NCBI GenBank assembly: GCA_051294905.1
Contig: CM119372.1
Location: 8,930,001-8,994,000 of the forward strand
Direction: 5' to 3'
Length of the DNA stretch: 64,000 nt
From: Botryllus schlosseri
Taxonomy: Eukaryota
Below are positions 13,201-50,562 of this stretch, one piece after another; within the stretch, counting starts at the first letter, position 1; each line of letters opens with the position of its first letter. The notes under the pieces are model-generated. The model did no database searches. It was not told the DNA's origin and saw only the letters and a list, made by a program, of their open reading frames with translations. The translations under genes were made by a program, and so were the position numbers.

Positions 13201-16200
13201 GTCATCCACTCACTCAGACGTAAAAGGATCTAGTGGATTCATGGCTCCAGAAGTCTTGAAGTTTATGTTGGGACCAATGAAACAAGGGACCAGTGACAAA
13301 ATGAAAATTAGAAAGGTTAGAGAATTCAGTAGGCTATGTATATTGTGTCTGATTGGATAATCTATTTGTTTCGACGCAACCAACCGATGCATATTTTTGT
13401 CGTCTAACTCTGTATTTATTGGGCCAGTCGTTGGATAAAGGACGGTTTATTTTCAAAGCCATAAACTCCCGTCAGTATTTTATATCCGAACCGCACCCGG
13501 ACAAAAAATGTTTATTTATGCGAGATAGTAAGTAACCTTGCTAAGAGTCAAACCTGAGATAACGTTTGTTTGATGCTGGAAACCCCTGGAGACTGCACAA
13601 GTGCACATTTATTGATGAGTGATATATTCATTGCAATTATAAGTAATATTGGACTTGCAAACTATGACCCAGGTGGATGGGGCGGGTCATCGATGTCCGG
13701 AATCGTATGATATTTTGTAAAGCTGCTGCTAGCTATAATAACCTTCACAGACAATTTGGTACATGTCTCGTGGGAACTAATGGATCATGAATACTTCAGC
13801 GGCAAATATATATCTTTCCTGCATGGCTACTATAGGAAGTGATGACTCCTTGTCAAATCATTAGAATGACTATTTTGGTCATGAAATATTTCTGGAGATT
13901 ATATTTGGTCCAACAATCCGATTTCCACTGTTTAAGTGGAAAACGGCAGGTTGCTGACAATATGTTACTGAAATATATGAGACTATTGCATCAGCTACCG
14001 GAAATATCTGTCGTATAATTCCAAGTTTGTACATATTAATGAATCATTCAGTTTTCACTTACCCAGATGTCCGCTCAGACTTGGTTTCCATTTTGAAAAT
14101 ATGTTGAATTAGTAGAAAGGGGTAACAAATACACTGGATAAAAGAGTTTTATTTCCTGCAAGGCCACAAGGGGATGTAGCAGATCTGGCTTCAAACCGAA
14201 ATTGCTGATTTAGCATTGTTTATATGAGGATCAGTAATTAGGTCACAAGCATTACCGAATATCATTTTTGGCGCAGAACCCTGAAATCTACTGTTCAAAT
14301 GTTGTTCTCAACGTGGGTGATATCACCCCCCAGTGGGCAAATTTGAGAAACAAGGGCCGAAAATACAAAAGGGGTGATCGTGATAGGGGGGTGAAAACGT
14401 CCAGTGAGAAATAGGCCTATTTAATTAACACGGCCTAAAAATGCATATGAAAACGGCTTATTCTTTATATGATGTGAAAGTTGATTAAAAAAATGATCAA
14501 CCCAATGGAAAGCAGTCGCGGATCGCTGTTTTCTGATCACCTTCTTGGAAAAAATGACCTTTTTTGTCAATTCACCAGCAATCGGAGTTTAGTGAATAAA
14601 TTTCCCGTTTATATGTTCTCTTTTTCGGATTCGTAAATATCGGGGGGGGGGGGGGGGCGAAAATTTATGACAAGCTTGGGAGATAAAACTTTTTCACTCC
14701 GTAATATCTCTGCAGACTGAATCTGATTGCATATTCACTAAGCCCTGGATCTCAGAGTGAGGGGCTCCTACTCCGTGAAACTGTACTTTATTTTCAATTG
14801 AAATTTATATTGCCCGCCCGAGTTTATTTAATGAGATTAAAATCATTATATATTTTTAGGAGGCTGATATCTTTTCATTGGGAATCATTTTCTATTTCAC
14901 GCTCAGTGGTGGCAAACATCCATTTGGTAATGATTCTCTGAAACAAGATGAAAATATCAGAGACAATGTTCCCGACCTGGTCGAGCTGAAACCTGAATGT
15001 AAGCGAGAATGCCGTTTTTATGTATCTTCATTTGAAATTTTAAGCCTCCTGTGCGGAGGAATTGTTTTACTCATCATCTGAAATAGTATGGAATCTGAAC
15101 TGTTTCGGCACGCTTGAAGGCGCTGTGAAAAAAGATGTGGTTTTCTGAAATTATTACTGCACTAAATATATTGCATGTCTTTTCCTAATAAACCAAAATT
15201 CTGTGTAAATTGTGTGAGAGATATTTTTTAATGCAGATGAACATGACGCAAAGGAGTTGATATTGGCCATGTTGCGAAAAAAGCCAGAGAAACGAATTAC
15301 TGCGGCAGCTACAAAAGTGCACTTTCTCTTTTGGAAGGCGTACATAACATTGGAATTTTATCAAGTAAAGGTCTCTAGCAACAACAATTCCTTTATACGC
15401 TCATGTTATTTTGTGATTTAGAATGTGTCCGATATTCTCAATGATAAAGGTAAACATCAAGATGTAAAAAATAAACTCGAAAAAGGCGGCAGGGATATTA
15501 CAAAAGGAAACTGGCAAGAGGTATTGCAACGTGACAAACCTGCCATTGCTAAGAATTTGGAAGGCTCAAAAAAGAAGACTATCTTTGACCTAATCAGAAA
15601 AATACGAAATTGGGTAAGGTTTGACTGATTTCTGATCTCATCTCAAATTCACATATATTTCAACATTGATATTTTCTTTACCTCAAGGCGCATCATTATA
15701 ATGATGATGATACTTCTGACGAAATAAGATCAGACTTGGGACCCTATCCAGATGGTATAGTGGAACTGTTCAAAAGTCGATTCCCATGTCTCTTGCGACA
15801 CACTTATCATGTAATGAGCAATTTGAAAGATAATGACAGGCTCAGGAAATATTATGATGACAGGTTACTATACAACAATGTACTGTGGTTATAGTCATGC
15901 CTCATTGAAATTCTTTTTCATATTATCACAGTGTAACTGTATCAAAGCCTACGAAAGTCGTAAAAGTGGACAAACTGGCATGTATGAATCTGATGCAGCA
16001 GCTCTGGAACAAGCCATGACTCAATATCACTAACATTATGGAAATTTAGGCTTCAATTATGGCTTCAAACAATTCTTGACTTCTGCTCTTGACCTGCATG
16101 AATTGTTGCAGAGCTGCATCATGACTTTAGCACAATATGGTTTTAATGATACCTCCTTACATAGGCACTTTCTCCAAAACACTTGATGACAGTGACGATA

Positions 16201-19200
16201 TCCTTGCTTTGGTAAGTATACAATAATAGAATCTTTAAAAAATATCTCGATTTTACTGTTTTGATTGAAAATTTTAGGATTCAGAGGATGACGTTCCGTC
16301 TGAGGGTAAATATAAATATTTGATGACAGAACACACAGCTAACTCTGTGATATACATATTTCAAAGGCGAAGTTCTGGATATTGAACCGAGAAAATACCA
16401 GTTGGAGTTGGCTGAACAGGCAAAGCAAGGTCATAATTCCTTGATCATAGCTCCAACAGGTTGGTGTCAGGATATGTTCAGTTCATTGCTATGATAGTGA
16501 CCCTAATAGTTGAGTAAAAGCACTGACACATGTTCATCTTATAGTTACTCATTTTTTGATCCAACTGATATAAATGTTAGATTTCTTCCATTACAACATC
16601 CATTGCAGTCATACATTTATTATAAGTCAAGGACTTGTCCGTTGCATCTTATAAAGAGTTATCGGCACTCTAAAGGATTTCGCACAGATTTAAAACTAAA
16701 ACCCATATGGAAAATATGACAGAACAATCAGAATTACAGGTTATGAATTGCCCATTGTAAAAATGGTGACAACAAACTTTGAAGTATACGACATAATAAC
16801 AGCAACACTAAATGTAAAAACAACTGACGACAACCACAAAACAAATCAAACTAGTGAGAGATTTTCAAGTTCTACAGTAATTCTTTTTGCCTACATAGAC
16901 TTGGTTTTATCAACTCAATAATTTTGGCATCACTATGCCGGAGACTATGTAACAAACGCACTACCTGAGTCAAAGGAAGCCATTGGTCATGCGGAATTGA
17001 TCCGCCTCGCCAACATTTTCTCTTGACTCAGTTGGTGCAGTTATAATTAGTCAGCCTTAAAGATTACCGGACCTCGATCTGACATATCGATCTCTCTATC
17101 GACACGCATCGTTCATTTTCATCACTAGTCGTGTTTTATTACTCCTTATTTATTTCCATCCATTGTGCATACCTTGTATTCCCATCACCTAGTCCCTAGA
17201 CCCAGTGGCGTAGTAGCCTCTCTTGAGGCTTCTTTCTCAAGCGATATAGAACTTTTGGGACGCGGCACATTATTTTTACCGAAAAGATTGCTTGAAAATG
17301 AAACGATTTCAAAATTTGCTGCAGTCAACTTGAGGAGGGCGGCATTTTCAACAAAAGCCTGCCTATGCTCCTAAGCCACTGCCTAGACCCAGTTGAGTTC
17401 ATCTTTTCGTTGTATCACAGTGTTGTGCCCGTTGTAGTGTTTTGAAATGATAAAATTGCAATAAACTGATACTGATAACATCAATCACATATTATAGGCT
17501 ATTAATATTCTATTTCACCACTCTGTATGCTGTGATAAAACGGATCCGCATCACCAATACTTCCTCTGACTCAGTTGGTACACTTGTAACATCAATCACT
17601 TATATTGAACATTCTATTTCACAGGCTCTGGTAAGACGGTGGTTGCATATGAGATAATCAGACACCATCTGCTGCAAAGCCATGCCAAATCTATACTGTT
17701 TTTCGTATCCAAAACAACACTGGCCTTGCAACAGCATCGATTTTTTGAGCTGTAAGTAGGCTAAAGATTTCTTGTGTAAAATGGTAAATAGGCTGCACTA
17801 TTTAGCTGTTTGAAGACACTTGATAAGGGTGAAATTGGATATATCATCGGCGAAAACTCGACACATGCACCAACAGGGGCTGTCCTCAAAGGACGAAGAC
17901 TAGTTATCCTCACGCCACAAATTTTGATTGATGAATTGAAAAGGTTTGTTCCAGCTGTGAATTCCTTTTCAGTACACTTTTTGATTTTTGCTGTGTGACA
18001 ATACAGAAGTCGGACATCCGTCAAGTTCAGTGATTTTTCTTTACTTATATTTGATGAATGTCACAATGCAACCAAGAAGCATCCTTATAAGCAAGTAATG
18101 GATTTGTTTCTGGATAGTCGGACGAACGACAGTGGAAATGTGCAGGTATCATGAATAGGTCCTTATGTTTTATAACTTTTGACTATGAATATCCCATTCC
18201 ATGAAGTGATCTTTGGAATAAATACTGCAGAATGCAGATATGTTACTATCTATCTATGTGTTCTACCAAGTTTGTTTTTCATATCAATTTATTGGAATAC
18301 TAATATCCACAAAACTTGATTTCTATATTAGTTGTGAAAACTCTTCTACCTACCTATTAACACTGTTGACATTCCTCACCCAGAGATTGCTTCATTGATT
18401 TACAACTATCATTTACATTTCTTCAATTCCCTTTTTCTTAATTAGCATTTGCTACAGTCAGATTGTGTAGAGACAATGTATCTGTTTGATGTGGGTGTGA
18501 TCAGAGTAGTTGAGCTCAAAGATGTCATTGATCATTCATATCCTATACCGAATACTGTGCATGCCGATTTTTCTGTACCATCATTGTTGTAGTCTGATTG
18601 TTCTGTATTTCGGTTAGATCAGTGGTTCCCAACGTGGGCGATATCGCCCCCCAGGGGGCGATTTGGCGGTCTAGGGGGGCGAAAATGACGAAGGGGGCGA
18701 TAGGGGGGCGTAAACGGAAGAAGGGGGCGATGGGGGGCGAAAACAACGAAGGGGGCGATGGCGCGTTAAAACGGCTATATTGGAGTCGGGACCGTAACTA
18801 CCGCACCCCAAATCCCCCAATTGGGAGTGGAGGGCCCGAAATCGAAGGAAGCCCAATTTATTTCGTGAATTGACATGAATGATGAGTAATTTTTTAGAAA
18901 TTCATGCGACTTTTTAAAAAGTTAAAAAGTCATGTATCTTGATGTTGGGGTCCCCGTCACCCAATAAAAATACGCATGATTTATGGAAATGGGAGACTTC
19001 GGCGTCGGCCATTACTGCGCCACGACGCACCAAGACATATGAAGTTAGAGGCCATGTAACATGCGACTCCGAGAAGTGTGCCAGAACGATCAGCAGCGAG
19101 AAGACCTATAGTCCGAAAGGAATGCCCTTGTGCTGACCGAAAACTTCGATATATATACAATATATGTTTAACTGTCCATTGGCGCGTCGAATGTTCCTGT

Positions 19201-22200
19201 CCTGGCGACCTTAACCCTACAGGACAAATGCCAACCCGCAAGGAAAAAATTATTTGACAGTAAAGATATACCAATATGAAATCATGTGCGTCTTTTAGTT
19301 TGGTACGTTTTGACGATTTCCATATCTTCTGGCATAGTAGATATAGGAGGTCACGAAATATTATCATGTAAAGAAGTCAATATAACAACGATTCCGCCGA
19401 AGATGTTTAATTATTATTTAAGGGTCCTACCTTTTCCAACATACCACATCGACCATATTGACCGATTCAACCATGAGTTCTATAAATTTGTCGCGCTTCG
19501 CTCGTTTAGGCGAAATACGGTGACTCAACAAACAGTACATGAAATAGGGTAGGCCTATAGCTGATATGTAGCGATAAAAAGCCCACTGGCTAAGGGGGGT
19601 CTGGGGTTTGGTTTATCACCATATGGGGCCAAAGACCAACGTTTTTTTTTCGTTGGGGGGGGGGGGTGACGAAGTACTGTTTTTCGGTTCCCGATATTTG
19701 GGGGGCGATGATCGGTGTGGAGCTTCAAAAGGGGGCGATGAGTCGAAAAAGGTTGGGAACCACTGGGTTAGATGTAAATAAAGACTCTCTCTCTCTCTCT
19801 CTCTCTCTCCTAGCGATTAAGACTGGTGTTGTTATTCATGGCTGCCTCACTACCCATACTGCATTCAAATTCTGCAACTCCTAATTTGATCTCTTATCCA
19901 ATAATTATTTGGTTTTGCTTGCCTTTCACTTGAATCGATAAAATGCAACATGGACTCTAATTTGCTGCTATTTTTTTGTATGAGTTTAGTCGTAGGGATT
20001 GCTTGACTGAAATACTACTTGGCATTCACATTTTTCAGCTCTCACCATGTCACAAAACATATGGTGGCCATAAGCTCTTTAACTAAATCATAGAAAACCA
20101 TAACGTAATTTAACCAAGTCAATCATTTGACAAGAGGTCCGAGTTAAGTTTTGCTGGTGACGCCAATTACAACCACTTCAGAAGCACCAACTTCAAGTTA
20201 GTGTTTTCCACTTGAGATCATTGGAATGACAGCATCTCCTGGCGTGGGTCGTGGCAAGACGAGAGAAAAGGTTCTTGAAAACCTTACCACCCTTTTGGCA
20301 AATCTCAACGTTATGGATTGCCCGAACACTGTCGAAACCCATATCGAGGAATTGAAAGAGCATCAAAACGAAATAAAAGAAAGTAAGATGCATGAATACA
20401 CGAGATACTAGAGACACGTGCTAAAACAAGTGCACTAGTGATTGGGTTGTTTTCCAAATGTATACATGTCAAATGCAGCAATCCGGTGTTACAATCCTTT
20501 AGCCCACATGAGAGTAAAGATTCAAGATGATGAATATACGCGGAAAATACAGAAAGCCATGCGTTTGATCGAGAATGAAATTCGTAATGAGGATATGTTT
20601 GGGAGCGCACGTGAGGGAGAATTGTTTTAATACCGTAGTTGTTTTTCAGATTATTTATTCCATTTCTTCTACACACATATGCTCTTCTAATTGATATTAT
20701 TTATTTAGTAACTATTAGAATCAGTAGGAGTAGAACTAATAATAATGAATACTAATTAACCTGAAAAGTAAGAAACTGATATTGTGAATTTTTCGTAGGT
20801 ATGGTGTCGCCATCCATTGTGTTTGATTTTGGCACTTTTTTCTCATCGAGTTCCACAGACTGGAAAACAATTAATCGTGTACCAACTGTATAAAATTATT
20901 ATGGATTTTGCAACCAAATTTCAGAGAAGTAGAGTTCGTATTTGTGACAAAATGAAATATGAAGTATTGATGTAGTATTTCGGAATATCTTGTACAATAG
21001 ATGTGAATTTGTGTTTCATTGATTTACAAATTGACCTATACTTCTTTTTTAATATGCAATTCAGAAAACCAGATTCGGGAACCACCACATGATAAGAGTA
21101 AACAATCGTACGAATTGTGGGTAATGGAACTCATCAAGCATGTGAAAATAAAAATCACCGACTCCGAACGTGCCAGGACAGTATCCATTTACGCGATGCA
21201 TTTGAAAGTGTGTTTTCTGCGCCGCTGATTTTATCATAATGTGACATTCATACAATCATGTCTAGATGTACTACAAGCTGCTGTATTTGAAGAATCACAT
21301 ACCACGTGCTATTGATTATACAGATACCCTGGTATCCATAGATCAAAACAGTCAGCAGGGAGAATTCTTGAGGAAAATCAATTACGGTAGGAAAATATTT
21401 ATGATATAAAAGAATGAAGACAGTCAATTTGCTCATTTTATCAATATCATGACTTTACAGACTTTGGCTATAGATTATCGACAGAATATTATATTGAGGG
21501 GCCATATTACATATCACCATATCAAAAATCATCTCTTGCGCGAAGATTTTCCAAAGCTCCTTGATACTCGTCATACAGCAATTACGCAATGTATACTGCA
21601 AATCAACATAAATCTCATTTGTAGTCACTGTGAAAAAGACATTAAGGCACAAATATTTGCAGAGTTAGGTCCAAATCGGTATGGTTTTCTATACTTCAGT
21701 TCGTGGCTTTCACACAAGATTTTTCTGTTTCGCGATTTCATTATCGTTTATCTTCACCTCCTGCCTTGAAATCCTTGTTTTTGTTATAATTTACAGAAGT
21801 GATTTTCGCAATATTAGCTCTGTAACTTTAGTTTTGTCAAATATCATGGATACTGTAACAATCACAGTATGCCTTAACAGCATGATAAATATCCGATCTG
21901 TAAATTTTTTTTTATACCCAATTCTTTCCTAGCCACGTTAATTGGTGTTCAAGAGTACGCGTGAAGCGAGATACATTGACACTTTGGAAATTTCAGCTTT
22001 GCGAAACGCATCCATCAACAGCAAAGTTCCGATGCTGGAAAAGTTATTTGAAGAATTGCGAAAGCAATTCGACAGCCAGCCGGATTCAAAGTGCATCATA
22101 TTCGTACCCCGTAAGAAGATTGCTAAAGCGTTGACGGAGAGCATCAAAAACGATGAAACTTTGCACTATTTGAATCCTGAATATATTACCGGCAGTAACG

Positions 22201-25200
22201 AAAACGAGGCGTCAGGAGGTGAGGCAGGTGTAAAGTCCAATCAACACCGTGTAACGGTAAATTCCTAGGAATGACAAAGCCTGAACAGGGAAGTACTATC
22301 GAGGTGTTCCGCACCGGTAAGTGCAAAGTCCTCATATCAACTTCTGTGGCGGAAGAGGGACTGGATATCCGTGCGTGTAACTTGGTGATCATGTACAACT
22401 ATGTCACGGGAGAAGTGGGGCGTATCCAAAGAGCTGGCAAGTCATGACGGCTAGGGCTGGACAAGATTGAGTGGCCGAGTGATATGATACCGAATTGAGT
22501 ATTGTGCGTTGAGTCGAATATTTGAGTATCATTCATTATGATGCCATAAACATCACAGCTAATTTTGAAGTTCAAATATGTAGCATTCAGTTCGTTTGCT
22601 TATTTTAGAAATTTTCAAGTTATAAACACCACAAGATTCAGAGGTGGTCAGTAACGAAGTACTTCTACTTTTTGAAGTACTTGAAGTAGATTTTGCCTAC
22701 TCAAACTACTTTTTAAGTAATTATGATTTTAGACTACTTCTACTTCTACAACAGTTTTCAGTTTCGTAGGCAAAAATAAGCGTAGAATATCTACTTACCT
22801 ACTTGTGAACCACCACTCCTACTTCTACTCGAGTAGAAATCCGGCGTTACTTCTACTTCTACTTGAGTAGCGATTGTGACTACTTTGACCTCCTCTGACA
22901 AGATTACAATAGAATGAAAAGATAGGAAGGCGTCAAAACAACTCGGAGCTGTCTTTTATATCAGACACCGACCTGGGATTAGAACATAAATATAAGAGGC
23001 ATGCACACCGAATGAAAAGTAATGCATGATAATTAGGGCGACTTTTTACCTTAAAAAAGGATGATTTTGACCTAAGAAAGCAAAATTTTGACATTTTTTT
23101 ACCTTGGAAAACTCAATTTTGACAAAATTTTGCCCTCGTGTATGTAAATTAGGTGTTTTCGCACATAGTGTTAGAATTGTACTACTTATCTTCATTTCTG
23201 GTTGGAACTGTCTGTCCTTACAAAGTAGTTTGGCCTGAAAAAACTTTTTTGACTTGAAAACTGACCAATTTTTACATTAAAAAAACTTTATTTTAACGAA
23301 ATCTGGACCTATGAAGAATTCCAGTAGTTACACAATTAAAATTTTTTGTAGTACAGCGAAAAATCCTTTCCTACGTTCTCGGGTAGAAAGTGTCTGTCCT
23401 TACTAAGTAGCTTGCCAAGAGTTAGGACATTGCGGCACGTTGAGCAGACAATGGGCGGTCTACAGCGGTAGGCCTACACAGAAGGCTACAAGCTGTAAAA
23501 TGTCAAATGATAAGTTAACTGACAGTGCAAACATCTACGATACAAACAAAATTCAGGTTGCAAAAAATTTCTACTTTGTAAACCATTTTTAACAATTTTT
23601 TGACCTAATGCTACAATTTTTACTTTTTCTGACATGCCAAAAATAATCCCCGTAATGATATCATAAAAAGGACAAGCCATGAAAATGAGCAACCACAAAG
23701 AAATTATTCCCACTTACACGCCACATTAAAGATAATAATCTGTTCTTTTTTCGTGCACATTCTGAGCACGTGGACATTCTGAGAATGTTGCAAATCGATC
23801 ATGACTTCACAGAACGCCACCAACGTGCGTTGCTTTGTGCAACATATTTTGTGTTCTGTAAAACTGATGTAGATTTCAAGCAGGAAGCATGTATTGAAAC
23901 TAAAAGATTCTCGCTGATATCATAACGCTTACTGGAAAGAGACACATAGCTTCAGTACTCGCAAAAATATTCTTTCACTGCTCGACTCGAATCAATCAAA
24001 CAATCCTCAATTCGGATCTGAGTACTCGAATCATCTTGCCCAGCCCTACTCATGATGTATACTTGCCGTCTTAATCTCAACTGTCAATAACACAGGTAGG
24101 GGACGTGCCGAAAATAGCAAATCTATTTTGATCGCGCCATACGGAGGTGAGCAAATCGAGAGAGAGAGGAGGAACGCGGATTGCGCTCGTGCCAGCGACG
24201 ATGCGATTGCTGATTTGAGAGAGTTGTCTGACGACGAAAGAATCAAGAGAGTACAGCAAAAAAAAAGGCGTACAATTGTTTTCTCGACTTCACTCATTTC
24301 GTTTTGGCAGATTCTGAAAACTCAAAGAAAGCAAGCCCGCGACAGACAGCAAGAAAGAGAAGAATCGGAGAGACGTCTCCAGGAAGCTAAAAAGTGGCGA
24401 GTGCTTTGTGGTTATTGTCACACGCAAATCACGACTGCCGATCAAATCAGAGAAATCAAAGAAAAAGTATGCCTCGATCGATTTTTTTTTTGCTGAATTT
24501 CCAATTTGGTCTGTATGTGTATGAGTTTGTTTGGCTGGAAAGGTACGAGAATGCAATTGGGTGTAAATGAGTGTATATAACAGGGATGGGCAAACTTTTG
24601 AGCTCGCGGTCCGCATTCAACATATGAATCCATTCGCAAGCCGCACTATATAAAATTGGGATCATAAACCAAAACAAAATATTGATATTTGATTATATAG
24701 TGAGGACAGGGAGATAATATATATGCTTATTTAAAACAAGCCAAACATTGCTTTGATGATATCGTACACGCGTCAGAAACATATAGTGGCAAGATTTCAT
24801 ATGCTGGCGGACCTCAATTACCAATTTGTCAAAACTATAGAGATGAAAGTCGGTTGGCCCGATTCTTAGAACAGGATTGAAATTTAAATCTGTGAGCAGC
24901 GATCTGTTCATAGATTTACTAATTCCACTTTTGGTTCAGTTCCAGGACACACAATGCTGACAGCATCATAACCATGTTAGCTTCAAACACGCTTCTACTA
25001 TGTATAGATAAAATATAAATACCCCAATTCTATGCATACAGACAACGAATCTACCTAACACACGCCCGAATCGTTTTTATAGGCACACCACTGAAATAAT
25101 TCAAAATCGAGTGGCCAATCTGAAATCCCACTCGTGATCCAAATTATGTCAATCTTGTTGCAGCTATCCCGCGGTGATAATAAGTATTTAGCTTAGATCA

Positions 25201-26572
25201 GTGGTTCTCAAACTTTTCAAGGCATGTCTTGGAATTATCATGGTGAAATATACTAAGAAAAAGTTAATGAAGTCCCTGCATTAATTAGATTTTTAGTATA
25301 TATTTTATCAATATTTTTAAAAAGTTTCTTTAGACTCTCGCGGGCCGCACAGAACGGTGTTGCGGGCCGTAGTTTGCCCACCCCTGGTATATAACATTGA
25401 TAATTTGACGATGATCACTTATGATGGGTTACAATTTTTAGAAAAAGTCCAGTCAGAAATTTTTAAGATTTGCTTGGGTCCGTTATAATTCACATGATAT
25501 AATTTACAATCATACAAATGTTACTCGGTATAACTATACTAAACCCGGTAAAGCGGTATTAGCAAAAGCTACAATAGAACTGTCTTTATTGTTTTGTTGG
25601 TCACAGCGAGTGTGATGTTTAGCATCTTTTAGTTCTTGCTAGTTCTTAATGCCTTGGTGCTAAAGTGATGAGGTAGTGGCGAAGGTTGCACTGGTCATAC
25701 ACTTGTGAATGTTTGAAAATGGACTGAACTATCAACTATAATGGACTAAATTTTGTTACGAAACCAAGTAGGGTCCGAATTCAGCATGGAAAAGGTTTGC
25801 ATTTGGACCACGATCCGCCAATAGAGTCGCACTGGATTACAGAATGTGCTGCACTGTAATATATTGCTCTATACGAAGCTTGTGATTTTATATTTGTCAA
25901 AAAGTTATGGAAATTCTGTTATCATCGGTTACTTTTCCATGCAATCAATTTGGTAAATCATCCGTCAAAACCCAATCGCTAGTAGCCTAATACTGCAGGC
26001 AAAAATGATAGCAATTCCCGGCAAATGCGTCTGTTTAGAATTCTACTCTCTTTAAATCCAATTGCTTCAATTTATGGCATATACTTAGCACAAATTCGTC
26101 ATTGATCCGGAGTTTCGGAGCAAGGTTCACACACGAGCACTATATGGCGATTTGAAAGAAATTTCTCCTGGATTTACTGGAACTGCCAGATTCTATTGTA
26201 AAGATCACGAGTGCAAGTACGTGTGCAAATCCAAGCTTGGTTGAATAACGAATATCATTATAATTTGTTATCTGTAGAAATTACTTGGGATTGGAGATGC
26301 AATACAAAAGCAAGAAATTCCCTACTCTGAAAGCCGATCAATTGCTATTCGAAGACGTTTACGGAACCAGGGAGCACTGCAAGCAATGGAAGAAATGCAA
26401 ATTTAAAATTGAAAAGCATCCAGATGAAAGTGACGATGAAGATGACGACCTAAGCTCACAGATTGCTGCTATCAAACTGAAAAAATCAAATAACATTGTC
26501 AGTGCAGATACTATTTCGAATGATATTGCTTTTGAGTATTTAGACAACTGGAATCACTTTGTTAAAGACTGA
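1246..26572 (+). CDS. Gene A: IRE1-like kinase-KEN RNase fused to RIG-I-like receptor helicase and CTD (spliced, about 1181 aa)
   Basis: Exons read by hand: 1246-1352, 1413-1530, 1590-1649, 4579-4693, 13089-13315, 14860-14998, 15237-15364, 15422-15613, 15688-15863, 15932-15981, 16165-16211, 16278-16305, 16367-16459, 17625-17751, 17806-17943, 18007-18145, 20217-20382, 20503-20610, 21065-21207, 21266-21386, 21997-22218, 22269-22436, 24096-24250, 24311-24466, 26089-26216, 26278-26572. They sum to 3546 nt with all phases compatible. Motifs: [97 protein letters not shown]. Confidence 0.88.
8510..8907. mobile_element. hAT MITE (CAGTGGTTCCCAAC family)
   Basis: TIRs present; TSD tgctatac/tgctagac. 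It interrupts the transposase remnant. Confidence 0.85.
9195..11542. mobile_element. hAT non-autonomous element (CAGTGGTTCCCAA family)
   Basis: TIRs present; perfect TSD ttttagac. Internal sequence is shared with 18620-19765 and 37437-38091. Confidence 0.85.
9792..10615. mobile_element. hAT MITE (CAGGGGTGGGCAAAC family), innermost in the nest
   Basis: TIRs present; perfect TSD ttataggc. Homologous to 24581-25386. Confidence 0.9.
15422..15863 (+). other. Gene A KEN (kinase-extension nuclease) domain exons
   Basis: FYQNVSD...LEKGG...GNW...[13 protein letters not shown]...LGPYPDG...[13 protein letters not shown]...KYY. This aligns by eye with IRE1 FFQDVSD...DLLRAMRNKKHHY...LGSLPD..FTSRFPHLLAHTY. 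Confidence 0.92.
17203..17381. mobile_element. Short MITE
   Basis: CAGTGGCGTAG / CTAAGCCACTG, TSD cctagacc. Confidence 0.75.
18620..19765. mobile_element. hAT MITE (CAGTGGTTCCCAAC family)
   Basis: TIRs, GGGGGCGA subterminal repeats, perfect TSD ggttagat. Confidence 0.9.
22452..24048. mobile_element. TAGGGCTGG-TIR element with nested insertions
   Basis: TAGGGCTGGACAAGAT / ATCTTGCCCAGCCCTA. It contains 22639-22897 (CAGAGG TIR, TSD acaagatt) and fills most of the GC-AG intron of gene A. Confidence 0.65.
24581..25386. mobile_element. hAT MITE (CAGGGGTGGGCAAAC family)
   Basis: TIRs present; perfect TSD gtatataa. Long homology to 9792-10615. Confidence 0.9.
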
Positions 26573-27266
26573 TAACGTAGTGCACCTGATGCTGCAGTAC
26601 TAAGTAATTCAATTTTGACGCGTCATCCTTGTATCATGTACTGTTTTTGATGTTTGTGCTAACGCTATAACTAAAAAAATGTTCCTAATAGTTTTCCTCT
26701 GTCTCATGCTCAAATCATCCATCTCAATCTACTATTGGAGCAGCAATTTATTCATTTATGGTAATTCACCAGCCTGCTCATGATTATGCTCATGAAATAC
26801 TATCAATTATGAAAAGTAATCGATAATCACGAATGCATTAAGTACTGTTCTAACTACATTTTAGAAGGAGTATTGGTTTTAAATTTTAGATTCTAAAATA
26901 TGTTTTAAAATGTGTTAGGTAACTGAATGAGTTGTGTGCACGGATGAATTCATTGCTTTAATACAATTATATTGTGTTATATGTAGATTTGATCACGTTT
27001 CAGCATTTAACCCTAGCTATTGTAGAATCGAATGAAATTGTATTTCTCTTGTATTTGCGTAGAACCAAATGAGATATCCTCTGTCAGCTTAAAGCCTTAT
27101 TAGATTTATATGTAGCTATATGTACGAATCACCTTTTAAATTTAATTCATCTATATAGGCATTTGTAAACTGGTTTATTCAAACCAGGTTGTTGTTACTA
27201 TGAGTATCAAACAGATGGAGAGTCCGTAAACTAGTGTAGTTTTAACTTATTTACTTGACCATTGCA

Positions 27267-30200
27267 ATGTCTGTCAAATTGCGTGCGGTGGGTGAACACA
27301 AGGTCATCAAGATACCCCGTCTACCAGACTATAAAGGAACATTTGCAAAAGTTTACTTGTAAGTAAACGTTTATAATTTTCCCATCACTCTACTAACAGT
27401 CATTGTTCAACAGTGGTCGCTTTGATGAGCGGAATGTCGCCGTAAAAAAAGTGGATGAAGATGATAAATACTCCAAAAAAGAACTTGAATATCTGCGAGA
27501 ATTTCAACATGAGAACATTGTCCGCTATCTGTTCATGGTAAGCTGCTTTATGGTAACGATTTTTATGTAAGTATAATTCATCCCTGATGTTTTAAGGATA
27601 CTGATGAAAATGACGCATCATTCTATATTGTGCTTGAGAAATGCGACTGTACTCTGAGGGAGGTTCGTTGACAATTTTGGTGCACATTTATTTTATACCG
27701 GAGCTCTGCCTTGAGAGTGAACCAACGAAATTCTATAGTAACGTGTTCGTGTTTGTTTGTCCTGTGACATTGGATTCCGTTGGTACAAAATGTTCATCTT
27801 TGTAAAACAAAATAGCTGGTCAACTATTCACATATTTGTTCTCAGTGATGTGATGTCTTGACGCGTGCCATTAAGCTATGCCCACGGAGGTAAAAGTAGC
27901 ACAATTAAGCTAGTATCTGCCACTTTTTTTACTCAACTTGTAGTTTCTTGAGTGTTCTGCCTCAGAAAAGCCTGCCAATACACCTTATCACTTCGTTTCA
28001 AAAAGACTGCCGTGTGTACTATCATACTTTGATGGTTTGTCGATGGACCCCTGAACTAATAAAACTGACTCCATCTAATGATTGCCCGCACCTGCACTTT
28101 GTAATAAATGGGTATGAAAATTTAAAAGTAATATTATAGTCTATCAAATATTGAAGGTAACAAAAAAATGAAAATGGTACACTCAAGAACCATAGGATTA
28201 GTAACAATTGAATAGAGGTAATATAATAACGAATATAGGTACATTTCACACAACAACAATGATACAATCCAGAAACAAATCAAATGAGAAGCCCATTGTT
28301 GTCTCTTTTTGCTCTAAAACACTGCTGTCTGGTCATTAATAATTATCCCAAATATGGTACTTGTAACTGTGCCACACAACCCTGTGTTGCATTGTTGGAT
28401 CACAGATATTACAGATGAAAAACATCAAACTAATAACATTGATTGAAGTGATGCATTGTCACTTTGAAAGCATTACTTTCCTGGATTAAAAGAGCTCTGG
28501 ATGCCCTGAATTGTTGAATGATGTAATTATATTTGAAGAAAACTGAGATTAATTGTAATTGCAGACTTTGTTTTTGATGCAATTGTGATTTTCATGTAGA
28601 GGAATGTGACATGCATCAACGCCAAAAGATTGCTCTTCAATTCGAATCATTAACATTACCTGGTGTTACGAATAGAATCTTTCAATTACAATAAATTGTG
28701 AAACTGGCGCTTTACAAGTTGGCCAGAAACCAATCCCATTTAATGACAGCAAAATCTTCCGAATTGATACGAAAATAATCATCTTATTGAAAATATAAAT
28801 TCTGATAAAGCATCAGTCATTCTTATCCAACTATCAGCGCTTACTAGCGAACTACAGGCAACAATTGATTGCCTGTTTGGTAGGTGTTAGCAGTTTATTG
28901 CATGCAATATCGTGTCCTTTATTAAGATGCAACAACTTGTTTGTGTTGATATTCATTCCGGAGTTCAGGTTACCGTAATTTAAATACATTATTATATCGT
29001 GACTATGCTGAGCAGTGCATTTATGATTTCGTTAGTTCATCAATCGGAAAGAACACACCATACCGCCGCTTGAAATATTATGGCCTCTTACTACTGGCTT
29101 AGCATATCTGCACGAGGAAAAGAACTTGGGTTGGTAAAGAGTAGTCATTACTTATTTTTGGCTAATGTATCTAATCGGATGTGTTGATCCAGTGCACAGA
29201 GACCTGAAACCATGCAATATTTTGATGATTCAAAAAGACAGACACTGGATTCCTAAGATATCAGATTTTGGTATAAGCAAGACCATTGATAGGAACAAAA
29301 CAAAAGTAACGCAAACAGGAATCAAAGGAACCGTAGGTTTTATGTCCCCAGAGGCGTTGCGAAACGAAAAAGTGGATCAAGTAGGTGGTGGGATTGGGAT
29401 TGTAACAATCTGGGAGCTTCTAAGGGTTTGTTGCCATTTAGCAAGCTGATATATTCTCTCTGGGAATCATATTCTATTATGTGTTGAGTCATGGGGAGCA
29501 TCCATTCAAATCAGATGAGCTCAAGTTGGAATTTGACATACGAGAAGGGAAGGTCAGTCCCGAAATAGACGATCTAGAAATGGATGCAAAATCTCTCGTA
29601 CAAGCCATGATTGCTCACGACCGCAAAAGCAGACCGAAGATTCTTGAAGTTATGGCTCATCATTTGTTTTGGGATGGCGAAAAAAAGATGAATTTCATTC
29701 AGGTTTCCTCACAATATACGAACCAAACGGTACATTATTTTCATGTTCATTCTTTTTTTGCAGGAAGTTTCGGATATAGTGATTACAGACGAGTACAATC
29801 CCATCTTGGCGCCCATACTCGAGGCAAAACAAGAATATGTAGTTGGCGATTGGAGAGCTGTACTCTATGCAGAATCTCCGATAATCGAGCAGGTTTTTGA
29901 AAAAATGAGAAATAAGAAGCAGAATAACGGGGTGTGCGACCTGCTTCGAAATATCAGGAATCTGGTGAGTTTATGCATTTCAGAAATACAGTTTGCTTCA
30001 GGGAAGTTGGAAACGTCATTAAATTTATATATTGTAATTTGCTACTAAAATTACTCGTGTGAAGACATTTCCTGGAGTAAAATGAATTTTCCGCTACTAG
30101 TGATATATTTTCATCAAAGACCATAGTGACATGAAGAACCGCAATCCTTTCGAAATTGCTGTCATTTGCATGAATAATGTATATGTTACAGATAATAATT

Positions 30201-30931
30201 ATCGTAATTTTTAATACCACATTGCTGAAAACAGCAAACCTTGTCCTGCCGGCTAGATGTTGTTTTAATTTCGACCAACAATCCCCTGAATTCACCAGAA
30301 CAACATCTGACACGTAACTAAAATTTGGCTCCACTTGATAGGTTATTTTAATTCATATCATGATAATTTTCCGCACTGCACACTCGTTGATATCATAACC
30401 AATGTTCCCTCTAATTTTGTAGAGTCTGCGCACACTCACCAACTCACTGCGCAGACCCTTGAACAACAGTGCGTAACGACTAAAAAAAGGTCATCACTTC
30501 GGATTTTTTGTGCGCAACTTAGATATTCAATGTGCCGAGACTGTGTCATCACTGCGCATTTGCGCACGTGCGCAGCTTAGAAGGAACATTGATCATAACA
30601 TTGTTTTATGAAAGCCATCGTTATTCATGTAATTTGCTTCATAATCATTCATTTTCCATCAAATATATTGACGTAACAAAGAACTGTAACTGAATTGTAC
30701 AAAGTAGATTTCTGATGATGTATATGAAATTATTTGATAAATATTCTTGTGTCTTTTCCAGAAAAACCATTACAAAGAAAAGCCAGACGAATTCAGAAGT
30801 CTGCTCGGAGAAATGCCGGAAGGAGTGATGGAATTTTTCACCACTCGCTTCCGCAAACTAATCCCCTTTGTGTATGAAGAACTACGGCAAAAACGTGTTG
30901 AACTTGGCCTAGAAAAGTACTACATATACAA
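27267..30931 (+). other. Gene B kinase and KEN domain exons
   Basis: [81 protein letters not shown]. Confidence 0.93.
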
Positions 30932-33900
30932 GTACAATAGGCTGCAATGATATAGGATAATATTTACGGTAACCATGTTCCCAAATCCTACAGGGGCCAC
31001 ACAGGACTCAACTTGAGTCGAAGCCCACCAGTGCCAGGTTAGTTTTTATCTTATGCAGATGACATGACTGACACAATGTCAAACTGTAAACTTCTCAATT
31101 CAATTCAAGTAGAATCTAAAAAGTTTGAAGCAAATTTTACAATTTGGTTTAGTCAAATCCAATGTGGGTTGGATGCAATTTATTATAAATGTTCTAGTGA
31201 TACTCTACTGAATCGTATCACACACATGTTTTAGACTCCAATTTGCATACTAGCTTGAACTGCATAGTTTCGATCGAGTCTAGATTCTCGTTTTTGTTAC
31301 TCAGCTGTACAAAGCACGGGCTATAACAACTTGGAAGAATGCTCTACTGACAAACTGATACTACGAGAGTACCAAAAAGAGCTTGCAGAAAAAGCCATCG
31401 AAGGAAACAACTCGCTAATAATCGCTCCGACAGGTGAATGTATATACATTGTAGGAATATAGATTGATCCTAGTGAAATATGGATTTATAGGATCTGGGA
31501 AGACTGCTGTAATGGCAGGAATCATTGAAAATCATATCACCAAATCTACTGCCGGATGTATTATATTTCTTGTGCCGAAAACTGCCCTCGCTCACCAGCA
31601 GTATAAGTTCTTGCAGAGGTGGGGAATATTGTGTAGTTGCGTAGTACAATTGAGTTTGAACAATAACGATTTCAGGTATCTTCCTTGTTCTGTTGACTTT
31701 ATTATCGGAGAAACTGCACCCACTGTTCCACCGGGGCAGAAGATACAGGAAAGCAAGGTCACCGTTTTGACTCCGCGAATTTTAATTAACGAGCTTAAAA
31801 GGTAGGTGTTTCATAACAGTGTCTTTGTGTAGATTTGGAGCAATGGGATTGCCGAATTAAACGTGGCAAACTATATTTGATGGTAGTTATGTCACATACA
31901 GTTTAATACCATTTTACTTTTGATATTGAATGTATTGTGTTACGTTCTGCATAGGACCTGCGATAGCATTCTGAACTACAGCAATGCTATTATTCAGGAA
32001 AGACAACGAAAGATACGTTTCATTCGAGGATATATCACTACTCTTATTTGACGAATGTCACAATGCAAACAAGAAGCATGATTTCAAGCAGATTCTCGAG
32101 CTTTTTGTGGACTACAAGCAACAGAACAATTCCAACGGTTTCCAAATCCAAGTAAATGTCAATTTCTTTAGAGCATTGATCTTGACGACTTCGAATTTGG
32201 AGCAGACTGGCAACCTTCCTCCTAGATTGTTGGTGTAACGGCATCTCCCGGAATAGGTCGGGCGAAAGACAGAAGCAAGGTTAAAAGCAATCTACTCGAA
32301 TTGATGGCTAATTTGGATGTCACGATACCGCCAGTAACTGTAAAAAGGAATGTGGAAGAGTTGAAGAGGCATCAAAACGAAATTTCAGAATGTTAGCAAA
32401 TGCAATTTTCATTGTCTCATTAAGCAGCGGACATAATACAACATTTATTTAGACTACGTATCGGTTCAGACAGAATCTGAGTTTGGAAATGAAGTCGTTA
32501 AAGTTATGATGGACATTGAGAACAGCGTCAAAATGCTGAATCTACGGCACAATGGTAAAGGTTGGATTGATACGCATTCTGGCGTTCGATGACAACATTG
32601 TCTTTTAATCTAGCCGAACATCTCAACAAGATGCCAAAAAATCGATCGCATCAGGCATACGAGAACTGGACAGAAGCATTGAAAAATCACGCAAAGCTTA
32701 ACATGAGCGACGAGGACTCCAGTAGAATCCTTTTCACATACGCGGAGCACCTCAATGTGACTACAGCACACCAATTTATCATAAAGAGGCTTATCGCAGT
32801 TCATTATTTTAGATGTATAACTTCCTACTTCAATTGAAAGATCTTGTGCCGAACGCAATGACTCATGCCAATAAGATGGTGAAATTCTTGGAGGAAGGCT
32901 TCGAAAACAGAGACTTGTATGCGAAAAACAAGGGTAAACTGACAATTAGCACAATACACATGTATTTGCCATTAACATCGTTACTGTCTCCCAGCTCTGC
33001 TGTTGAAAGCTGAGAATGTCAAAGTTCCGATGCTGGTGAAACTGTTCAGCATAATTAAAGAGGAATTTCACACGAATGAAGAGGCCAGATGCATTGTCTT
33101 CGTGAAAAGGAAACTTACGGCGACCAGCTTGGAAGATTGCATGAAAAACGATGACGAGCTTGCAAGATTAAACGCAAAATGTCTGATGGGCACCCATGGA
33201 GCAGGAACGGATGAGGGTATTACAGTTCACGCCTATTGCGTGAATATAGGAATATTCGCTGTTCATCGGGTAGGGATATAGCCTTTTCAGAGGTGATCAA
33301 AGTAGTCAGCGTTGCTACTCAAGTAGAAGTGGCAGTAGCAATTCGCCATGCATGACAAAACTACTTACGAGCTGCATATATTTAGCAGTAAATCGGACAT
33401 GTTTACTTTCGTCATTACAACCAGCCCAAAATGAGTAACGATGTTACAAATTGGTGCAATTTTCTGTTTCGGTTACTGTAATATATAGGGGCTATTTCAT
33501 GCCATTCAAATGAAAATTTCACTCTGTTTAGTGATGACAAAAGTTACACAAGATGCGATCATCCAAGCTTTCAGCAGCGGAGACACCAAGATTATCATTG
33601 CCACTTCTGTAGCCGAGGAGGGCATTGATATAAAGAAATGCAATCTTGTAATCATGTATAATTACGTGACTGGGGAGGTCGGAAGAATACAGCGTAAAGG
33701 TACTGAAATTACTGATGGCAATGCATTTTTTGATGGAAAACAAGCTGAAATATTGTATGTTTTGGACATTTCTATCGAGGCTGTAATGTCACGTCTGCAG
33801 ACTTCGCATGCAGAATTATTGCGTAAAGCATTTGCTATCACTCCTTTTGCTCAAAAAAAGTATTGAAATTGCCTATGGCAATGATCCGATCCAAGCAGCA

Positions 33901-35611
33901 CTAAGCATTCTGGATGTTCATAACTCTACGTTGGAAATGTGGAAAATACATTTTCTGACACACATAATTTTCAGGTAGAGGAAGAGCATCTGGCAGCAGA
34001 TCAATACTTATCACTTCGGTTGGCAGCGATCATACGAAGCAAGAAAAGGACAATCTCATTTGTGCACAAGCAACTGACCAAGCAATCAAGGACGTCAATG
34101 CAATGTCTTCGTCAGAGCTGCAGCAAGAGGCAGCATATATACTCTGAATCACATCAAACATTGTACACAACTTGATGGTATTTCGTTCAGATAAAGAGAA
34201 TTCAGGACAAAGATAAGGCTGAAAGGAAAATGATCTTGGAGATGACCCAAGCGAAAAAGGGCTCTCCTTTAGATTGGGAAATACTATGCGTCAAATGCAA
34301 AACGTTCCTAACTGCTGCAGATAAGCTTGGGCATATCGATGATGTTGTAAGAGTTTGACATACATACCATATGCACGCTGTGTATTAGAAACAACTGCTT
34401 TTATTGCAGCACATAGCCGTACAGGACCCTGGGTTTCATAATAGAGTCTCAAGAATTGAACAAAAAAGCCAAAAGGGTCCCGACATCCAAGGCACTGCGG
34501 ATTTGGTCTGTGGCAATCCGAAATGCGGGTAGGTTTGTATTAACGAACCGGTGCATGGTTTACAGCAGGGGTCACCAACACGCGGCCCTCGAGGTCAAAT
34601 TTTGCGGCGCGCGACCTGATTTTAGATTTCGAAAGAACGCAAAGTAACGCATTGTGAAATGCTAAAATTTATTTCAGTTTAAAAATATTGACGTTGTTCA
34701 AAATCAGCTATTCTATTGTGCTCAACATCACCATTCCTCACTAGCTGATACGGCTTCAGCTATGGTAATAGCACTCCATGGAGGAGAATTAGCTCATATG
34801 AATGGGGGCATTGCCTTGGCGTGTAATGGCCCAGACACTGCTAAGACCAAGTCGCTTATAAAACGACCTAGGCTTCCGCACATGATCAAGCTATACTAGG
34901 AGATAGTTTTCCAGCAAGTACCGTGTCTACCTAACCCCAATGTCAATTATTTAGCCACTGAAAAGTGTTGTCAGGTTTTGTGTGCTGCTTCTTAAATAAG
35001 ATATTAGTTCTATTGTGGTAACTATGCCTGCCGCCCACGTTAGAGAGCACAGTGTTGTATGTGCTATGGTTGTTAATCTATGTGGCCTAATTTATCTCGT
35101 TATTGAATTCATGCGCCCCTCAGCCTATGCGAAATTCGATATGTGGATTGTGACCTGCGATCCCTGGTTTACAGGCAGACTTGATAGGCTCTGGAAAACA
35201 TGCAACGCTAAAAGGAATAATCTAAAACTGATACCCCAATTCATCAAAGGATTCATTTTATTCGCATGAAATCAAAATCTATTTTTAACAATCTTACAAT
35301 ATTGGGATTCCAAATGAGCCGTTGGAAATATTTGGCAATGTACTGATTTCAATACTGGTTATTGCAGAACCAAAGTAGCACTGGAGATGGTGTATCACCA
35401 ATCTTGCTACATTATACTGTCATTCAAACGAATAATTCTTCGGAACAAAGACGGGAAGTTTTTGGAGCCCAAGAAAAAGAAAAACTTACCCTTTGCAGTA
35501 ACGAGAAGTGTAGAAGACATGGAAACAAGCGAAAGCAACTCAACTGATGGGAACGAGTCTTTCAATAATGATGATCTTATGGAGAGTTTCGAGATCAATC
35601 AAATTTTCTAG
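27267..35611 (+). CDS. Gene B: paralogous IRE1-like kinase-KEN RNase fused to RIG-I-like helicase and CTD (spliced, about 1123 aa)
   Basis: Exons: 27267-27358, 27414-27537, 27597-27662, 29036-29129, 29193-29380, 29442-29702, 29764-29964, 30762-30931, 30994-31037, 31305-31433, 31492-31618, 31676-31801, 31998-32151, 32226-32391, 32453-32554, 32614-32756, 32813-32933, 32995-33216, 33532-33699, 33975-34129, 34191-34346, 34410-34528, 35368-35611. They sum to 3372 nt with compatible phases. Motifs: [97 protein letters not shown]. Confidence 0.88.
30400..30591. mobile_element. Short hAT-type MITE
   Basis: CAATGTTCCCTCTAA / TTAGAAGGAACATTG, perfect TSD atcataac. Confidence 0.85.
31305..35611 (+). 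other. Gene B RIG-I-like helicase and CTD exons
   Basis: All SF2/RLR motifs Q and I-VI are present. Hel2i has QAYENW. The CTD has two Cys pairs, CVKC and CGNPKC. Confidence 0.95.
34566..35166. mobile_element. hAT MITE
   Basis: CAGGGG...CCCTG ends, perfect TSD gtttacag. Confidence 0.75.
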
Positions 35612-36659
35612 GCTCATAAGGACGCAATTGCATTTTGAGGCAGTGCCTTCTCATAATGACTGTATTTTAGTTATTATTGAATGAAAGGTCTTTTCGCCTA
35701 ATTTTGTTAATTTGTATTATCATGATTTATCTGTTCACAAATGTTGGAAAATTCATCATTGATGCTGGATGAAGAGATTTCATTAATTGATTGTGAATAG
35801 ATAAGAGAGGATATATTTATCATTGCATATCTTCAAATTTGATATGACACAAAAATATTGGTTGGATGCTATATCTAAAATGCAGTTCATGTGAATCCTG
35901 ATATGAAATTAATATTGGTGAGGATATATGAATATGTAGTTCAATATGCTTTACAAGTTGTCTTCTATTGCTTTAAAACAATTTTTTGCTTATTTTGTTA
36001 TCTGTACTTTATTGAAATCATGCTTACGTTACTTAATCTTTGATTCGCAAGCAATCATACTAAAGCTGAGCAATTGAGCAGTGTGCAAACGTCCCATATT
36101 CAACCATCAACCTATTTTGAAATTATGAAAATGATATGATGTCTTGTTTCCAGTGCTGGGGGCCACGTCGCTACTTTATAGCTGCCACGAGTAGCAGCAT
36201 GACTCGGTCATTTCAAATGTTTTTAAAGTGCTGGCAACAAGCCAAACTGTCTAGTTTAATGCCAGACCCTATTTTTCGGTGTTGTTTATCGTATCATAGA
36301 GCAACGCAATTGCGTTTCTTTCTGCCGAGAATGCTAATTCTATGCTATGGAAGGGATTAATCCCCCACATTTACAGAGTATTATTATCGTGAAACCCAAT
36401 TTTTATGAACCTTGACAAATGTAACTGTAATGATGATATTGTGTGCGCCTTGATCGGATGAAAATATATAATATGATGATTTTTACTGTTATTATTATTA
36501 CATGTCATACACATTTCATTGCGATAATGTTTTCAGTGGGTCTATTTAGATTTATAAATTAAATGGGTCTTATGAATGCACGAAATGTTTATTTACTACT
36601 TTTAGCATCACACGTTTATACCATCCGAATAGTTGAATCAACAATGAATATGTTTAGAG

Positions 36660-50200: not shown

Positions 50201-50562
50201 TTATAGAGTAGCGTGTATTTGTTATTTGAAATTACTGAGTCTTTATTGTTTCTTTCATGCCAGTTTTGCCCAGCGGTTAGCATATACTTATCGTTGCATG
50301 TGGTGCCACATTCCATGTGTGATCAAGTTGTATTCTTTGCTTGTAAACTTCGATGTATTTTAATGCTATGCTACACCACCGAAACATTTTGACACATGTT
50401 TGTCTTAGCATAGTCTATCAATCGTGTGACGTATTTCAATGAAATATTGCGTTGCCAATGCTGAGCCTTTTTCAACAGCTTGAGCTCACGAAGCAACTGG
50501 AAGATTACCAAAAGGATGCCGCTGACTTCGATGACTTTGTGCGGCAGTTGGAAGCTTTCTAA
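41234..50562 (+). CDS. ATG13: Autophagy-related protein 13 (HORMA domain, disordered region, LIR, C-terminal MIM)
   Basis: Exon 41234-41386 reads MQQPEISNTERKEMENLTKLLCLKTAQVIVQGR and 43783-43949 reads FNPAIKDIPDV..VEISLQT..LEVW. Exon 44012-44149 has SRATPAYKLSRNQ and 44219-44365 has GSIGTPTGTFTMAVAFR. Later exons give the LIR-like EDYLMVEL (about 49960-49982), NPAF..DLCAFYK (50046-50168) and the last exon 50479-50562 ...DFDDFVRQLEAF*. These match human ATG13 motifs as I recall them. Boundaries of the middle exons are less certain. Confidence 0.93.
42392..43688. mobile_element. Tc1/mariner-pogo-type non-autonomous element in an ATG13 intron
   Basis: TIR CCGTAAACCGGGGTAAC / GTTACCCCGGTTTACGG flanked by TA, with internal GGGGTAACTTTGGAC repeats. 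Confidence 0.8.

Follow-up and report, generated by a model that had tools for sequence, protein, structure and literature searches.

Two tandem Botryllus schlosseri genes joining an IRE1-type kinase-KEN module to a RIG-I-like helicase

RNase L combines ankyrin repeats with a pseudokinase lacking canonical HRD and DFG motifs, while IRE1 has an active kinase behind a transmembrane (TM) segment. The locus described here, part of a window of 64,000 nucleotides of Botryllus schlosseri DNA analysed as a whole, raises the question of which of these its kinase-RNase module resembles, where the module came from, and what it would do when joined to a helicase. The original prediction was a cytosolic, catalytically intact kinase derived from a duplicated IRE1, independently of RNase L. 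Our reading, which we place slightly on the probable side of even, is that the two genes found here encode cytosolic RIG-I-like receptors (RLRs) in which, since an ascidian ancestor, the kinase and KEN portion of a duplicated IRE1 gene stands in place of the CARDs, and which double-stranded RNA (dsRNA) would cluster into an RNase dimer. The domain order, the splicing of gene B, the intact kinase motifs, the lack of a membrane anchor in B and the IRE1-type introns are observed here; the remaining steps are borrowed from RLR and IRE1 biology.

Two tandem genes and their transcripts

The window carries two tandem genes, A and then B, both on the + strand and both comprising a kinase, a KEN RNase, a RIG-I-like helicase and a C-terminal domain. 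In window coordinates, their features are:

1246..26572, + strand: gene A, ATG at 1246 and stop at 26572; 26 modelled exons, 1181-aa model
1246-1352, 1413-1530, 1590-1649, 4579-4693, 13089-13315, 14860-14998, 15237-15364, + strand: gene A kinase domain (orthologue P0147, 52%)
15422-15613, 15688-15863 (span 15422..15863), + strand: gene A KEN RNase (Pfam, spliced model)
15932..26572, + strand: gene A linker (three small exons, modelled only), RIG-I-like helicase and C-terminal domain (joint 26216/26278 in RNA)
26573..27266, + strand: gene A 3' UTR, reaching the start of B (unbroken RNA contig cover; longest stop-free frame 54 codons)
27267..35613, + strand: gene B, ATG at 27267 and stop at 35613; 23 exons, 1123 aa
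27267-27358, 27414-27537, 27597-27662, 29036-29129, 29193-29380, 29442-29702, + strand: gene B kinase domain (four joints in RNA)
29764-29964, 30762-30931 (span 29764..30931), + strand: gene B KEN RNase (an RNA contig piece ends at 30931)
30994..31037, + strand: gene B linker exon of 44 nt, joining KEN to helicase in frame (matched by P0001 residues 395-410, 62%)
31305..35613, + strand: gene B RIG-I-like helicase and C-terminal Zn domain, to the stop (14 exons, 11 joints in RNA contigs)

Both spliced models are open from ATG to stop. Their splice sites are GT-AG except for one GC donor per gene, needed at 34130 and 22437 and in both cases outside the RNA joints listed; the acceptor of gene A exon 17 reads GAG. 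Pfam recognizes Pkinase (E down to 1e-14) and Ribonuc_2-5A (E down to 4e-11) on single exons, and the six kinase exons of gene B coincide with the stretch originally assigned to the effector (27267..29702). Over kinase and KEN, A and B are 37% identical. Five fusion proteins of this kind were found in all: A, B, P0001 (64% to B; encoded on a 3437-nt contig), P0002 from Styela clava (52% to B; the nearest named relative, labelled 'probable DHX58' and with the same domains) and the N-truncated P0147 (52% to A). The helicase of gene B shows the motifs GSGKT, DECH, TAS and QRxGRxR, and that of P0001 has RIG-I as its best PDB match. The fusions have the SF2 helicase motifs and RIG-I C-terminal domain by which RIG-I-like receptors are recognized, and no N-terminal CARDs of the RIG-I/MDA5 type were found in them by Pfam on P0001, P0002 and P0147.

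RNA contigs over the locus are spliced, and RNA supports 15 of the 27 joints among those listed, 14 of them in gene B. These include the kinase joints 27358/27414, 27662/29036, 29380/29442 and 29702/29764, and six raw reads span gene B intron 1. The joints from KEN to helicase in gene B are modelled and lie outside those listed; the contig piece covering the KEN exons stops exactly at the modelled donor (30931), and its depth equals that of the first helicase joints. Splicing of gene B is seen directly in RNA, and the KEN-to-helicase link is predicted from the model, this contig end and the conservation of the linker exon in P0001.

RNA contigs also tile unbroken across 26573-27266, from the last exons of A into the first exon of B, and the peak of the single-cell reads (26881-27207) is likely the 3' end of gene A, just before the B ATG. 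The tiling resembles an ascidian operon or read-through, even though a contig across two genes is not proof of one transcript. A contig begins at 27116, but this was not accepted as the 5' end of gene B, given that the contig overlaps the preceding one by 30 bases and that no start or end pile-ups are among the data listed. A high-copy small repeat lies within the KEN intron of gene B (30415-30591), where all four runs show very high depth, and the introns of gene A contain many similar short inverted-repeat elements, as judged by eye. Further downstream are an ATG13-like gene (43795-50560; weak Pfam match in one exon, E 1e-4; extent by eye) and an SH3-PX-BAR sorting nexin (52737-54410).

Origin of the kinase-KEN module

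Against PDB, the kinase-KEN part of P0001 scores 170-176 bits with mammalian IRE1, and RNase L is absent from the best 60 of 760 matches; KEN alone scores 41-55 bits with IRE1 and 16-25 bits with RNase L. A best match to IRE1 was rejected as proof of an IRE1 origin, since a catfish ankyrin-kinase-KEN protein used as control behaves alike (IRE1 153-161 bits, RNase L 85-88 bits).

More informative are the introns of A and B, which fall on human IRE1 codons 588 (phase 2), 631 (0), 651 (0), 685 (1), 753 (0), 801 (1, in A only), 843 (0) and 907 (0). Four of these eight kinase-KEN positions are corroborated by breakpoints in vertebrate IRE1 records, mispredicted vertebrate-like entries breaking at 588/589 (P0165), 651/652 (P0266), and 800/801 and 907 (P0122). 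A literature search yielded no ERN1 exon boundaries; introns 685 and 843 match the boundaries we take ERN1 to have, and 631 and 753 do not. RNASEL is not known to have introns in the N-lobe. Mainly on these positions, and also on similarity, the derivation of the A and B modules from IRE1 is supported. Together with passages of PMC10400998, which confine RNase L to jawed vertebrates and derive it from a pre-existing kinase-RNase protein, the intron evidence makes it likely that this origin was separate from that of RNase L.

Trees were built by FastTree on 118 rows (six of 124 being dropped by a KEN motif filter) and by IQ-TREE C20 on 25-47 rows, the five trees including neither an RNase L sequence nor an identified ascidian canonical IRE1. 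In every one, the A-type, B-type and stand-alone proteins (P0124, P0126 and P0195, kinase-KEN relatives of about 410 aa) form a single clade with support of 99-100, but the attachment of this clade shifts between trees. The proposal of an IRE1 duplicate as source is thus sustained by intron positions and similarity, and is left by the five trees without a firm attachment.

This instability bears on an alternative origin, which we regard as unlikely, in which the module goes back to cytosolic kinase-KEN proteins that formed an older animal lineage (ankyrin-fused in fish, TPR-fused in cnidarians, perhaps the stock of RNase L) and not from a fresh IRE1 duplicate. The Gly loop of gene A resembles the fish and cnidarian forms, IRE1 is the best PDB match of the catfish control too, the ancestry given for RNase L in the available part of PMC10400998 would suit such a lineage, and one tree unites the clade with the cytosolic kinase-KENs of fish and cnidarians (97/95). 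However, that grouping drops to 35/16 in another set, with a CARD-fused row moving into vertebrate IRE1, and the 14-row 'cytosolic clade' was discarded as owing, at least in part, to long-branch attraction. Further trees join the clade to vertebrate IRE1 at 84/98 or leave it in a polytomy, the AU test does not reject its sisterhood with vertebrate IRE1 (p 0.295), and over KEN the fusions share 33-34% identity with human IRE1, the fish and cnidarian rows 18-24%. Nor does the AU test reject a fusion that arose once, with the stand-alone proteins outside (p 0.139). The best tree places the stand-alones beside the B-type fusions, a possible case of helicase loss or of decoy partners.

Kinase, RNase site and N-terminus

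The kinase motifs predicted for both copies are present in the spliced models: VALK, the alphaC Glu, HRDLKPSN and APE in gene A, and, in order, VAVK, Glu, HRDLKPCN, DFGISKTIDRNKTKVTQT and SPE in gene B, so that the active-kinase signature (beta3 Lys, alphaC Glu, HRD-K-N, DFG, APE Glu) is complete in A and B. In an alignment to human IRE1a (P0377; length 977), whose numbering we anchored on what we take to be K599 and which is consistent with D711, Y892 and R905, the residues K599, E612, H686-R687-D688, K690, N693, D711-F712-G713, E741, D756 and R820 are retained in A, B, P0001 and P0002, and P0147 retains the equivalents from H686 onward. Ser or Thr occupy the IRE1 726/729 and 734 positions of the fusion activation loops. 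The predicted degeneracy of the Gly-rich loop also holds, the middle Gly alone surviving and the first being replaced by Ala in A and by Tyr in B and P0001; the Tyr of B is a caveat on the predicted kinase activity. The ATG, expected about 20-25 codons before this loop, lies 21 codons before it in B and 27 in A.

In the fusions, as in IRE1, a KEN domain with Arg-Asn-x3-His comes directly after the kinase; gene B retains the R905/N906/H910 equivalents, and all eight clade members retain the Arg, Asn and His. The general-acid Tyr (human Y892, yeast 1043) is absent in all five fusions, where the alignment is gappy, yet the loop contains no Tyr at all; this absence was overlooked by the original prediction. 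The D620 equivalent is not retained in the fusions, and R617/R627 are lost in A; we take these positions to form the IRE1 dimer interface, and their loss counts against an IRE1-like dimer.

On these data, the proposed mechanism would start with the helicase and C-terminal domain binding dsRNA and lining up along it. The line-up would gather the kinase-KEN modules, as luminal oligomerization does in IRE1, and nucleotide binding plus trans-autophosphorylation of the Ser/Thr-rich activation loop may steady a kinase-KEN dimer, whose Arg-Asn-His site would cut RNA; lacking the general-acid Tyr, it would probably do so at a lower rate or with less specificity. In passages of PMC3149027 on yeast Ire1, the reported loss is at least 3x10^5-fold for His-to-Asn and about 10-fold for Tyr-to-Phe, so a KEN domain without the Tyr may still cut RNA. 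The kinase would most likely act on the RNase as a switch; that it also phosphorylates other proteins is possible but unsupported here, and the signalling by phosphorylation that had been suggested is speculation. The model of P0001 superposes on IRE1 with a TM score of 0.86, a partly circular agreement given that the alignment behind the model is mostly IRE1; single-sequence folding gave no usable model (pLDDT 32).

Two alternatives divide the labour between kinase and KEN differently. In the first, which we consider improbable, the kinase is the output and KEN is weak or merely RNA-binding, making the proteins PKR-like dsRNA-activated kinases. Invariant kinase residues beside a KEN lacking its Tyr in all fusions, and the partial loss of IRE1 dimer residues, would fit, but the Arg, Asn and His are kept throughout the clade and the His is the dominant catalytic residue according to the available part of PMC3149027. 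The second, equally improbable, holds that phosphotransfer by the kinase is slight or absent and that, as in RNase L, its role is confined to that of a scaffold binding nucleotide. In favour of this, the Gly loop has kept one glycine of three, Tyr taking the first position in B and P0001, and relatives within the clade already lack catalytic residues: in the stand-alone proteins, His replaces the catalytic-loop Lys in all three and Asn the catalytic Asp in two of three. Against this, Lys, Glu, HRD, Lys, Asn and DFG persist across a deep divergence, phosphorylatable residues remain at the activation-loop positions, and catalytic-loop Lys and Asp are both kept in all five fusions despite the 37%-identical A/B split. 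Because stand-alone relatives in the same clade lost theirs, the kinase residues of the fusions look selected; the original prediction had overlooked these losses.

The claim of a cytosolic protein, with no room upstream of B for ankyrin, luminal or TM exons, is well supported for gene B. An in-frame stop lies just 5' of its ATG, 26900-27266 offers no AG dinucleotide open in frame to the ATG, RNA contigs enter exon 1 unspliced, and P0001 and P0002 begin at the kinase like B; RNA, homologue starts and in-frame acceptors thus reveal no signal peptide, luminal domain or TM segment for B. The hydrophobicity maximum is at most 1.36 in the eight clade proteins (A over 807 aa) versus about 2-3.6 for most IRE1 TM segments, and Pfam finds no N-terminal ankyrin repeats in P0001, P0002 and P0147. 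For gene A, the absence of signal peptide, luminal domain and TM exons is graded likely: its Met-to-WxxVG spacing equals that of the stand-alone P0126, and of three AGs open in frame upstream the strongest reaches a score of -0.5, lower than 41 of the 42 modelled acceptors. That A has extra upstream exons beyond the window, encoding a membrane anchor or another domain, is very unlikely. In its favour, only 1245 bases precede the ATG, a phase-1 AG lies 2 bases before it, near the codon 558 break of vertebrate IRE1 records, and P0147 is N-truncated and uninformative. Against it, this AG has that same low score, the N-terminus of A shares length and motif with P0126, and B, P0001 and P0002 all begin at the kinase.

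Comparison with known systems

Detached IRE1-like modules occur elsewhere, as seen by Pfam on 53 of 150 representative matches plus 13 further proteins: PYRIN-, CARD-, PARP-, ankyrin- and VWA/MIB-kinase-KEN forms, and kinase-KEN-CCCH. In trees, the PYRIN- and CARD-fused forms nest within vertebrate IRE1 and the CCCH form within nematode IRE1; the position of P0177 (PYRIN-kinase-KEN) and P0159 (CARD-kinase-KEN) inside vertebrate IRE1 suggests a separate recruitment of IRE1 into death-fold signalling. P0182, P0186, P0181, P0213 and P0252 are PARP-, VWA/MIB-HERC2-, CCCH- and ankyrin-fused kinase-KEN proteins, and P0280 of Styela clava, on a very long branch, combines three kinase domains, FN3 repeats and a degenerate KEN. 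ESM Atlas matches were generic kinase-KEN clusters only. Since detachment of the cytosolic half of IRE1 recurs, a point overlooked by the original prediction, a cytosolic active IRE1-type kinase is not unusual in itself, and the unusual part is the link to an RLR helicase: among the scanned proteins, no nucleic-acid helicase sensor was found outside the clade.

If our preferred reading is true, the closest invertebrate relatives of vertebrates gained dsRNA-triggered RNA decay separately, by wiring the enzyme half of IRE1 to an RLR, and the fusions would be a present-day instance of the cytosolic stage with an active kinase through which the RNase L ancestor supposedly passed. It makes testable RLR filament assembly alone as the on-switch of a kinase-RNase, and a Tyr-less KEN as a working nuclease, and the other detached modules suggest repeated recruitment of IRE1 into immunity. 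A wider and more doubtful possibility, offered tentatively, is that A and B form a self-contained antiviral system in which the RLR helicase senses dsRNA and the same chain answers by cutting RNA and phosphorylating proteins, thereby covering the functions of both OAS-RNase L and PKR with neither a second messenger nor MAVS; as divergent paralogues transcribed back to back, the two may pair on the same RNA.

The fusions resemble IRE1 (ERN1) in kinase and KEN motifs, 33-37% identity to the human protein, common intron positions and the same fold. They differ in lacking a signal peptide, luminal domain and TM segment (likely so for A), in the added C-terminal RLR helicase, in a Gly loop one residue shorter, and in the missing KEN Tyr892 and D620. 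With RNase L, they share a cytosolic kinase-like plus KEN module and predicted dsRNA-triggered RNA decay, but they lack ankyrins, have canonical kinase motifs, and carry the sensor in the same chain instead of relying on OAS and 2-5A; the exact RNase L motifs in this contrast are those we take it to have. RNase L is called a pseudokinase in the part of PMC4730318 available.

The detached PYRIN, CARD, PARP and other modules are alike in having kinase-KEN without a luminal domain, joined to often immune domains. KEN fusions and a solo-KEN expansion in Oikopleura are described in passages of PMC3710099, which gave no RIG-I match. With RIG-I-like receptors, the fusions share the helicase motifs and Zn-binding C-terminal domain, and differ in having an enzyme pair in place of CARDs. 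Other N-terminal grafts on RLRs, reported in parts of PMC8998645, are death, DED, IG, SAM and caspase domains, and 'ribonuclease' has no match in its main text. No description of a kinase-KEN-RLR fusion was found in the literature searched, which left most subscription papers beyond reach, and figure 2 or the supplement of PMC10400998 could include one. What is new here is the joining of kinase-KEN to an RLR helicase, which extends the known kinds of both RLR and kinase-KEN proteins.
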